A stretch of 34,951 nucleotides of DNA from a virus (taxonomy: Duplodnaviria > Heunggongvirae > Uroviricota > Caudoviricetes). The translations under genes and the position numbers were made by a program. Below the pieces are notes generated by a model that was not told where the DNA came from, did not search any database, and saw nothing but the letters and a program-made list of their open reading frames with translations. This document shows, one piece after another, positions 24,012 to 25,484 of the stretch (position 1 is its first letter; the number at the start of each line of letters is the position of its first letter). The stretch spans positions 1 to 34,951 of the IMG/VR virus record IMGVR_UViG_2740892423_000023, one strand, 5' to 3'.

Positions 24012-24434
24012 TTATTGTTTATGTGCTGCTCTGGCTCGTTTTCTGGCGTCTTTTGTCAGCGCCACCATCACCCCGAAAAGCTGTTCATCCGTCAGCCATT
24101 CGATCACATGTTGCTTATACATGTGAGATGCCAGTCCTTCTGCATACGCCCAGGAACGACCGGCATCAGCCAGCAACGCTTCAATTTTGGATAATACCGA
24201 TTTTCTGCTCATTGCAACACGGGGGCGGCGACCTTTACCGACGGGCGCTTTGCGCGGGAATCCCTGTTCGTGCATATATTCCCGGATGATGCGCAGTTCA
24301 TCGAGGTTGCAGCGTGTGGTGCTGGTTTTACCGGTCAGGCGGGCCAGCGTCTGGCGATAAAGGGCATCATCCCACCCCAGATACGCCTGACCGGCTTTAA
24401 TGGCTCCGATCATCTTTTTCAGCATGTTTGTTAT
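24012..24434 (-). CDS. gemA: GemA-like regulatory protein (DUF1018-like)
   Basis: ORF 24012-24551; start refined to ATG 24434 (MLKKMIGAIKAGQAYLGWDDALYRQTLARLTGK), characteristic N-terminal pattern; position before Mor. Confidence 0.65.
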   Translation of the reverse strand: MTNMLKKMIGAIKAGQAYLGWDDALYRQTLARLTGKTSTTRCNLDELRIIREYMHEQGFPRKAPVGKGRRPRVAMSRKSVLSKIEALLADAGRSWAYAEGLASHMYKQHVIEWLTDEQLFGVMVALTKDARKRARAAHKQ

Positions 24435-24675
24435 CCTCAAAACGCACGGTAAAACGTGAAACACCAATCCCTGACAGAAACGCGGCGGCACGGTCAAGAG
24501 ACAGCCACGTCTTGTAATCGCCACGGCGTTCCTGTAGAAAATAGGACACACCAGCGCGGCGATTCACAGCGAATAGATGATACACACCACCGAACCGCTG
24601 CACGACGAACTCATCCACGCCACCGCTTTCAGCCTGTTGCCGGAAGGCTGCCATTCCGATTTGTTCAATCTTCAT
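24397..24675 (-). CDS. Hypothetical protein (92 aa), possible DNA-binding protein
   Basis: ORF 24397-24711; ATG 24675 (MKIEQIGMAAFRQQ); no SD; preceded by palindromic hairpins. Confidence 0.45.
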   Translation of the reverse strand: MKIEQIGMAAFRQQAESGGVDEFVVQRFGGVYHLFAVNRRAGVSYFLQERRGDYKTWLSLDRAAAFLSGIGVSRFTVRFEDNKHAEKDDRSH

Positions 24676-24698
24676 AATGACCAAAACACTACTTTTGG

Positions 24699-24724
24699 CA
24701 GACCAAAACATATGTTTTGGTCTG
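24699..24724 (-). promoter_or_regulatory. 26-bp perfect palindrome upstream of the 92-aa gene
   Basis: CAGACCAAAACATATGTTTTGGTCTG; a second related inverted repeat CCAAAAC-N5-TTTTGG at 24681-24698 abuts the start codon. Confidence 0.55.
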
Positions 24725-24742: not shown

Positions 24743-24925
24743 TTACTTTGCGTTAGTGTGATTCTTCCAGCGGTTTTGCGCCGCGCTGGGCTTTTTGCAA
24801 CAGCTGTGCCCCATCACCCCGCAACACCCCGTCAACCTCACTCGTCTGTTACTAATCCTCAACCATCGCCAGATCCCAACACCGTTTCTGCGAGCTAACA
24901 GAATTTTTGCCTTACGATTTTTCAT
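24743..24925 (-). CDS. Small basic Cys-rich ORF (60 aa), hypothetical
   Basis: AGGAGAG RBS 7 nt before ATG; ATGA overlap with preceding small ORF; composition atypical. Confidence 0.25.
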   Translation of the reverse strand: MKNRKAKILLARRNGVGIWRWLRISNRRVRLTGCCGVMGHSCCKKPSAAQNRWKNHTNAK

Positions 24926-25095
24926 CGTTTTGCTCTCCTGCGTTTCTTTGCTGCTCGTCTCGCCGCCGCAATGCCTGTACGGCGTTTCGGTGCCGGGATG
25001 ATGCTGTCAGCCATCAGGACATGCGGCTTTGCAATTAGCGCAGAAGCCCAAAATCGAGTCGGATACGGTAACAAGCCGATACATGCCACACGCAT
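24922..25095 (-). CDS. Small basic ORF (about 57 aa), hypothetical
   Basis: Hand translation MRVACIGLLPYPTRFW...RRAAKKRRRAKR; GGAGGTGA SD formed by last codons of upstream gene; TAATG start overlap. Confidence 0.25.
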   Translation of the reverse strand: MRVACIGLLPYPTRFWASALIAKPHVLMADSIIPAPKRRTGIAAARRAAKKRRRAKR

Positions 25096-25484
25096 TACTC
25101 ACCTCCCTTACCCTGAAGCATGGCGGCGCAGCAGGCGTTCCATGAAATTTCCTGAAGGGAACGACGAATCTGTGTGCTGCATATACTCCTCCCTGACTCC
25201 TGGCTGTTAAACCATGTTTCAAATTCCGGCACCACCGTCGCTGGCGGGGCAGCGTAGAGTGGAATGCCTCTCCCTCCATAAGAAAATTCGTTGCGAGCGT
25301 TATACTCACGACCATCTGCGTCATCACGCATCCATGCCACCGGCTCTGCTTCCAGCGATGCCAGCGCGATACGAAACACATTGGCAAGCAGGCTGTTTGA
25401 AGATTGGTTATCGTGCGCCGGGTCGCTCAGGAAACCAGTGATGAATGATTTAATCTCCGCTTTTTCTCTGGTTATAGTGGTCAT
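25095..25484 (-). CDS. Hypothetical protein (129 aa)
   Basis: ORF 25095-25565; start refined to ATG 25484 (MTTITREKAEIKS) with AGGAG RBS, just after upstream stop. Confidence 0.5.
   Translation of the reverse strand: MTTITREKAEIKSFITGFLSDPAHDNQSSNSLLANVFRIALASLEAEPVAWMRDDADGREYNARNEFSYGGRGIPLYAAPPATVVPEFETWFNSQESGRSICSTQIRRSLQEISWNACCAAMLQGKGGE

Follow-up and report, generated by a model that had tools for sequence, protein, structure and literature searches.

Two small, strongly basic open reading frames on the minus strand of the window (the whole 34,951-nucleotide stretch of DNA that was analysed, a Mu-like E. coli prophage) are very likely genuine small protein-coding genes of the early operon, together making up a portable accessory cassette. 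The preliminary description had reported two tiny chained ORFs at 24743-25095, and they are present exactly as noted, on the minus strand; the overlaps TAATG and ATGA and the two strong Shine-Dalgarno (SD) sequences that it listed can all be found in the sequence. The features referred to below are:

25095-25484, minus strand: upstream neighbour, an apparently chimeric Ea22-related gene (129-aa ORF)
25099..25106, minus strand: Shine-Dalgarno sequence of ORF57, GGAGGTGA, read from the sequence
24922..25095, minus strand: ORF57, 57 aa, with ATG at 25095-25093 and TGA at 24924-24922
24933..24939, minus strand: Shine-Dalgarno sequence of ORF60, AGGAGAG, read from the sequence
24743..24925, minus strand: ORF60, 60 aa, with ATG at 24925-24923 and TAA at 24745-24743
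24397-24675: downstream neighbour, a 92-aa gene (phrog_7844) that precedes gemA
24758..25109, minus strand: mosaic block with sharp edges, from the ORF57 SD to ORF60 codon 56

The predicted products are MRVACIGLLPYPTRFWASALIAKPHVLMADSIIPAPKRRTGIAAARRAAKKRRRAKR for ORF57 and MKNRKAKILLARRNGVGIWRWLRISNRRVRLTGCCGVMGHSCCKKPSAAQNRWKNHTNAK for ORF60. Both are about 6-7 kDa, with a pI of about 12 and net charges of +14 (ORF57) and +16 (ORF60), in agreement with their initial characterization as Arg/Lys-rich. The CC..C..CC clustering ascribed to the second ORF has to be corrected: ORF60 has four cysteines, arranged as CC-x6-CC (C34, C35, C42, C43).

The two genes are tightly packed against each other and against the gene before them. 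At 25097-25093, TAATG overlaps the TAA of the upstream gene with the ORF57 ATG by 1 nt, and at 24925-24922, ATGA overlaps the ORF57 TGA with the ORF60 ATG by 4 nt, suggesting that translation along the series may be coupled. The ORF57 SD, which is kept in relatives, lies within the final codons of the upstream gene (...KGGE-stop), and the ORF60 SD within the final codons of ORF57. In 35 of 125 copies a single A-to-G change converts the upstream TAA to TAG and the ORF57 ATG to GTG, and both signals stay functional. ORFs of this size are frequent by chance (42 of at least 30 aa overlap the surrounding 3-kb stretch), so the case for ORF57 and ORF60 rests on comparison with relatives; the SDs, the chaining by overlaps and, above all, conservation in relatives appear to raise the pair above chance.

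Copies of the genes in other phages hold their reading frames. ORF57 is open, at 51-60 aa, in all 125 copies drawn from IMG/VR with a frame-agnostic 24-nt DNA motif, and in 128 of 129 copies selected by anchoring on the junction; ORFs of the ORF60 family are intact, with their C-terminal motif, in 214 of 238 copies. These counts come from copies that are mostly from closely related Enterobacteriaceae phages, some of them chosen by motifs inside the ORFs. The indels that distinguish ORF57 alleles are 3, 6 and 21 nt long, all multiples of three. ORF57 alleles that have diverged further (to about 60% identity) are still 52-57 codons long in three phage backbones: a second Mu-like prophage, the nin region of a lambdoid phage and a phage associated with Salmonella. 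In each of them the next ORF has 59-62 codons and overlaps ORF57 by 4 nt.

Analysis of codon-substitution patterns in relatives, proposed as a check when the ORFs were first described, bore out the coding interpretation: Nei-Gojobori dN/dS in the annotated frame is 0.29 for ORF57 (46 unique sequences) and 0.30 for the ORF60 family (50 unique sequences), as against 0.8-1.4 in four other frames. The remaining frame, the antisense one that shares wobble positions with the genes, also has low values (0.33 for ORF57, 0.51 for ORF60), which would be the expected shadow of the sense gene, and it carries stops in 3 of 46 ORF57 and 12 of 50 ORF60 sequences. A 79-aa ORF on the plus strand (24971-25210) was considered as a true gene in its own right and set aside. 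It lies in this wobble-sharing frame opposite ORF57 (dN/dS 0.33), is cut by stop codons in some relatives and extends into the variable gene upstream; a shadow ORF is its most likely reading.

Within each gene, constraint is unevenly distributed. In ORF57 the C-terminal 22 residues have a pN/pS of 0.25 and the N-terminal part one of 0.49, and each invariant residue of the C-terminal portion is encoded by several synonymous codons. In the ORF60 family, dN/dS is 0.14 in the SNRR motif, 0.21 in SAAQNRWKNH and 0.60 in the variable core, a value that gives no evidence of diversifying selection in the core; the value of 0 in the first ten codons is partly imposed by the search pattern. The codon for the invariant Ser26 can be AGC, AGT or TCA, and those for Arg28 and Arg60 are drawn from both arginine codon boxes (CGN and AGR). 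Of the options offered in the preliminary description, that of real small proteins is thus the one upheld, by the open frames, the frame-specific dN/dS of about 0.3, the codon-box switches and the ORF57 indels in multiples of three. Frameshifts or stops in relatives, which had been named as evidence to the contrary, do occur, but in a minority of lineages: ORF57 or ORF60 is frameshifted in P0075 (95 contigs), P0095, P0097 (91 contigs), L129 (3156-3338, which carries a 4-nt duplication) and L115, while most frames remain open. The persistence of frameshifted versions in these lineages indicates that the genes can be dispensed with, as prophage accessory genes usually can.

Both genes belong to families already catalogued among phage proteins. 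ORF57 matches phrog_13831 over its full length (E=1.4e-37; residues 1-57 against positions 1-58 of a 58-position HMM). Its N-terminal half is moderately hydrophobic and variable, and its C-terminal part is a highly conserved Arg/Lys/Ala-rich helix (PKRRTGIAAARRAAKKRRRAKR). ORF60 likewise matches phrog_1380 over its full length (E=2.5e-29; residues 1-60 against positions 1-60 of a 62-position HMM). Members of its family share the motifs MKNRKAK, (R/K)hSNR(R/K) and SAAQNRWKNH, arranged around a core that varies in both sequence and length. Among 1.84 billion representatives, the family HMM picked up just 40 clusters at 50% identity, almost all of 25-112 aa and one of 196 aa, all in the same family and none linked to a characterised domain. 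The ORF60 family is therefore narrow, though spread over 40 such clusters it still appears to hold real divergence. A homologue was sought in the Rac prophage of K-12, with ydaF and ydaG considered, and none was found there.

The two families differ in their independence. ORF60-family genes occur in one to three tandem copies, with or without ORF57, whereas ORF57 is always followed by an ORF60-family member in the copies sampled. At loci selected by an ORF60-family start, ORF57 is the upstream neighbour in 13 cases and a shortened remnant of it in 10; another copy of the family precedes the gene in 8, and an unrelated gene does so in 26, of which two are ORF57 copies that the classifier missed. 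Taken together with the constant company that ORF57 keeps, this survey marks ORF60 as autonomous and ORF57 as an optional upstream partner. Most junctions lacking ORF57 retain the SD and spacer GGAGA(G/A)(C/T)AAA(A/G)CGATG, and some use a different SD. Alleles of ORF57 and ORF60 reassort freely.

Several arrangements within these families deserve mention in their own right. Tandem arrays consist of two or three diverged paralogs of 58-64 aa linked by ATGA overlaps, as in RCS47 (L004, 1665-1841), phiV10 (L003, 1515-1885) and many IMG/VR loci; the window has one copy. A precise deletion of ORF57 is seen in L180, L135, L140, L145 and similar loci, where the end of an Ea22-like gene (GCATTCGCA(T/C)CAAAGGAG) is joined straight to the ORF60 SD, and which looks like the outcome of recombination between two similar SD/linker sequences. 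The 59-aa P0155 is unrelated to the family in its first 40 residues and has the same AAQNRWKNYLRTKGE ending, which suggests that the 3' end of the gene may act as a shared recombination linker.

In the window the pair is placed in the early semi-essential operon of the Mu-like prophage, on the minus strand. The nearest complete genome, STEC316 (99.2% identity across 1.3 kb), carries on the same strand a Mu transposase, an AAA (MuB-like) ATPase, DUF3164, an Ead/Ea22-like gene, GemA and Mor, together with lysis, terminase, head and tail genes. The 129-aa ORF immediately upstream (MTTITREKAEIKSF...GKGGE) looks chimeric: PGAP calls just its first 55 codons in STEC316, as a pseudogene “missing C-terminus”, and its final stretch of about 35 nt (25142-25110) reappears at other gene ends in related phages.

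Homology to other phages begins and ends at identical positions, 25109 and 24758, in dozens of genomes, so defining a mosaic block that leaves out the final four codons and stop of ORF60. The block is carried by Stx lambdoid phages (78.6% identical), by P1-like phage-plasmids (e.g., RCS47), by phiV10 (about 93% identical, annotated as PhiV10p49/PhiV10p50) by other Mu-like prophages and by some further phages; in 933W, the space between L0069 (Ea22-like) and L0068 where it lies is unannotated. Among complete E. coli genomes it has matches in 596 of 5426, at 428 chromosomal and 271 plasmid places. In three lambdoid prophages (L127-L129, 3001-3344) the pair lies not in the exo-xis region but in the nin region, with the replication genes ahead of it and DUF551, hok/gef and the Q antiterminator behind; the cassette is evidently not bound to one operon.

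What the two proteins do can be approached through their composition. High positive charge is kept in every allele and paralog. The cysteines are not: their number ranges from 0 to 4 among alleles and paralogs and no cysteine column is conserved, so that the cysteine cluster of ORF60 is best regarded as incidental, with no metal-binding signature, and a small metal-binding protein built on it was rejected as a candidate. AlphaFold2, run with family alignments, gives all-helical models of low confidence (pLDDT 66 for ORF57, 60 for ORF60), in which the sole reasonably confident element is the predicted ORF57 helix at residues 40-56 (pLDDT about 80). Pfam, NCBIfam and PADLOC hold no family for either protein, and sequence-profile searches of the PDB gave no meaningful match. 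Neither peptide nor locus is mentioned in the literature and supplements consulted, among them a Ribo-seq study of small genes in EHEC and a preprint on small proteins of UPEC; a search there for direct signs of translation, such as ribosome footprints, peptides or tagged products, found none.

From these properties, small and helical accessory proteins that bind nucleic acid would be the best inference. A tentative proposal, one that could well be wrong, is that soon after induction the two proteins bind nucleic acid (RNA or DNA) or some other polyanionic target in the host, in a dispensable host-modulating or regulatory capacity; it draws on composition only, that is, on the conserved charge and the predicted helices. 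The sequence of events is probably as follows. ORF57 and ORF60 are transcribed within the minus-strand early (semi-essential) operon, and each is translated, presumably early after induction, from its own SD embedded in the end of the preceding gene. The resulting peptides would act as helical polycations on nucleic acid or another polyanionic target, ORF60 being able to act alone and ORF57 serving as an optional partner that comes only with an ORF60-family gene in every copy sampled. The pair probably recombines among Mu-like, lambdoid (exo-xis and nin), P1-like and phiV10-like phages by way of conserved gene-end linkers.

A bolder and rather doubtful extension is that the MKNRKAK...SNRR...SAAQNRWKNH proteins, with ORF57 as an option, form a new class of portable Arg-rich nucleic-acid-binding peptides that are exchanged as cassettes and whose variable core sets the target. 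If so, unrelated temperate phages (Mu-like, lambdoid, P1-like, phiV10-like) would be exchanging such peptides among themselves and amplifying them in tandem, with cores directed at targets such as an RNA of the host or phage, the ribosome or a defence system based on nucleic acids.

Other explanations of the region give the peptides a smaller role, or none. One possibility, though an unlikely one, is that ORF57 and ORF60 are spacer or linker cistrons, translated into peptides that hardly matter: their translation would keep ribosomes on a long early transcript, hold translational coupling and prevent Rho-dependent polarity, and their conserved ends would supply the cassettes next to them with ribosome-binding sites and with linkers for homologous recombination. 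Much about the gene boundaries is consistent with this. Gene ends across the region encode the SD of the next gene (...KGE-stop / AAAGGAG...), and the block boundaries lie exactly there; some phages have lost ORF57 by an exact deletion between the two SDs; the otherwise unrelated P0155 has just the C-terminal AAQNRWKNxLRTKGE in common with the family; and the free reassortment of alleles and the weak constraint on the middle of ORF60 (dN/dS 0.60) and the N-terminal half of ORF57 (pN/pS 0.49) are also in keeping with it. The strongest purifying selection, however, is found not at the gene ends but at internal motifs, with a dN/dS of 0.14 in SNRR and codon-box switches at its Ser and Arg positions, which argues for a functional product. 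The C-terminal helix of ORF57 is moreover maintained over synonymous variation well upstream of the approximately 15 nt that the ORF60 ribosome-binding site needs, and the high net positive charge is kept even where the sequence changes.

ORF57 might instead be a membrane-active or toxic peptide (a type I toxin, or Kil-like), its N-terminal half in the membrane and its basic tail in the cytoplasm, with ORF60 a separate gene. Its first 30 residues are hydrophobic in all alleles (maximum 19-residue Kyte-Doolittle mean 1.1-1.56, compared with at most 0.96 in ORF60) and are followed by a strongly basic tail, its best PDB match, a weak one, is to a light-harvesting membrane helix (E=0.22), and in some lambdoid settings this accessory region also contains a hok/gef-family toxin gene. 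These values nevertheless fall below the usual transmembrane threshold of 1.6, the segment is broken by conserved Pro and Arg residues, the most conserved part of the protein is the basic helix rather than the hydrophobic half, and no toxin or defence family in Pfam or PADLOC matches; the idea seems quite improbable. More improbable still, to the point of being hard to sustain, is a non-coding role for the region, as a leader or a small regulatory RNA on one strand or the other whose ORFs are fortuitous; this option had been left standing in the preliminary description. Prophages of pathogenic E. coli encode many sRNAs, a stretch of about 270-650 nt goes without annotation here in PGAP and in 933W, and nucleotide conservation is high across the ORF57/ORF60 junction, all of which could speak for an RNA. 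A search for sRNAs, suggested at the outset, returned no Rfam family at the gathering threshold and nothing significant at a permissive E<=10; predicted folding is no better than in shuffled sequences (minimum free energy z-scores of -0.25 sense and -1.51 antisense); a tRNA scan found nothing; and no convincing promoter/terminator pair brackets the block. That the frames are preserved, that indels in ORF57 come in multiples of three and that dN/dS is low specifically in the annotated frame would in any case be unexpected for an RNA gene.

The closest known counterparts of the two putative small-protein genes are the phrog_13831/phrog_1380 pairs of phiV10 (PhiV10p49/PhiV10p50) and of the L0068-L0069 gap in 933W, which have the same gene order, overlaps and SDs, at a block nucleotide identity of 78-93% to the window. 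They differ in backbone, lambdoid or phiV10 rather than Mu-like, and in the last four codons of ORF60 (TNAK in the window), the latter because the mosaic junction falls at 24758. In lying directly after an Ead/Ea22-like gene of an early operon, the pair is also comparable to lambda ea8.5/orf55 and to the extra ORFs of Phi24B and 933W. [quoted passage not shown] Unlike these, the ORF57/ORF60 pair is found in nin regions, P1-like plasmids and Mu-like early regions as well, and neither ORF is related in sequence or predicted fold to Ea8.5, a zinc-finger/homeodomain fusion.

A looser likeness is to the arginine-rich-motif (ARM) RNA-binding peptides of lambda and P22 N and HK022 Nun, which are also short, Arg-rich, predicted-helical segments of early phage proteins; by analogy, the Arg/Trp motif QNRWKN of ORF60 and the Ala/Arg/Lys helix of ORF57 have something of an ARM-like look. 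ORF57 and ORF60 have no detectable sequence homology to N or Nun, are half the size of N and too short to accommodate counterparts of its NusA/RNAP-binding regions, and neither a boxB-like conserved hairpin nor an excess of RNA structure was detected in or next to the block, by Rfam or by folding against shuffled sequences.

For genome annotation, the comparison indicates that both ORFs should be called. RefSeq and GenBank records currently call zero, one or two genes over the block, which about 11% of complete E. coli genomes carry, and in STEC316 RefSeq PGAP annotates nothing over the 645-nt gap that contains both. Both are already catalogued as hypothetical phage proteins. They add to the many small early proteins that temperate phages encode and that are still uncharacterised; some members of this set, e.g., Orf73/TraR-like and Kil, have proved to reprogram the host. 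A cassette that moves among four unrelated phage backbones is a reasonable, if not urgent, candidate for functional screening.

A minor observation concerns the AT-rich stretch that separates the stop of ORF60 from the ATG of the next gene (24675). A perfect 22-bp palindrome, composed of GACCAAAACAT and ATGTTTTGGTC, occupies 24701-24722 of the window and is accompanied by a third half-site at 24679-24689; it could serve the Mu-like backbone as an operator or another site of protein binding, or form a weak hairpin. The same palindrome sequence is also present in STEC316 and in L058.
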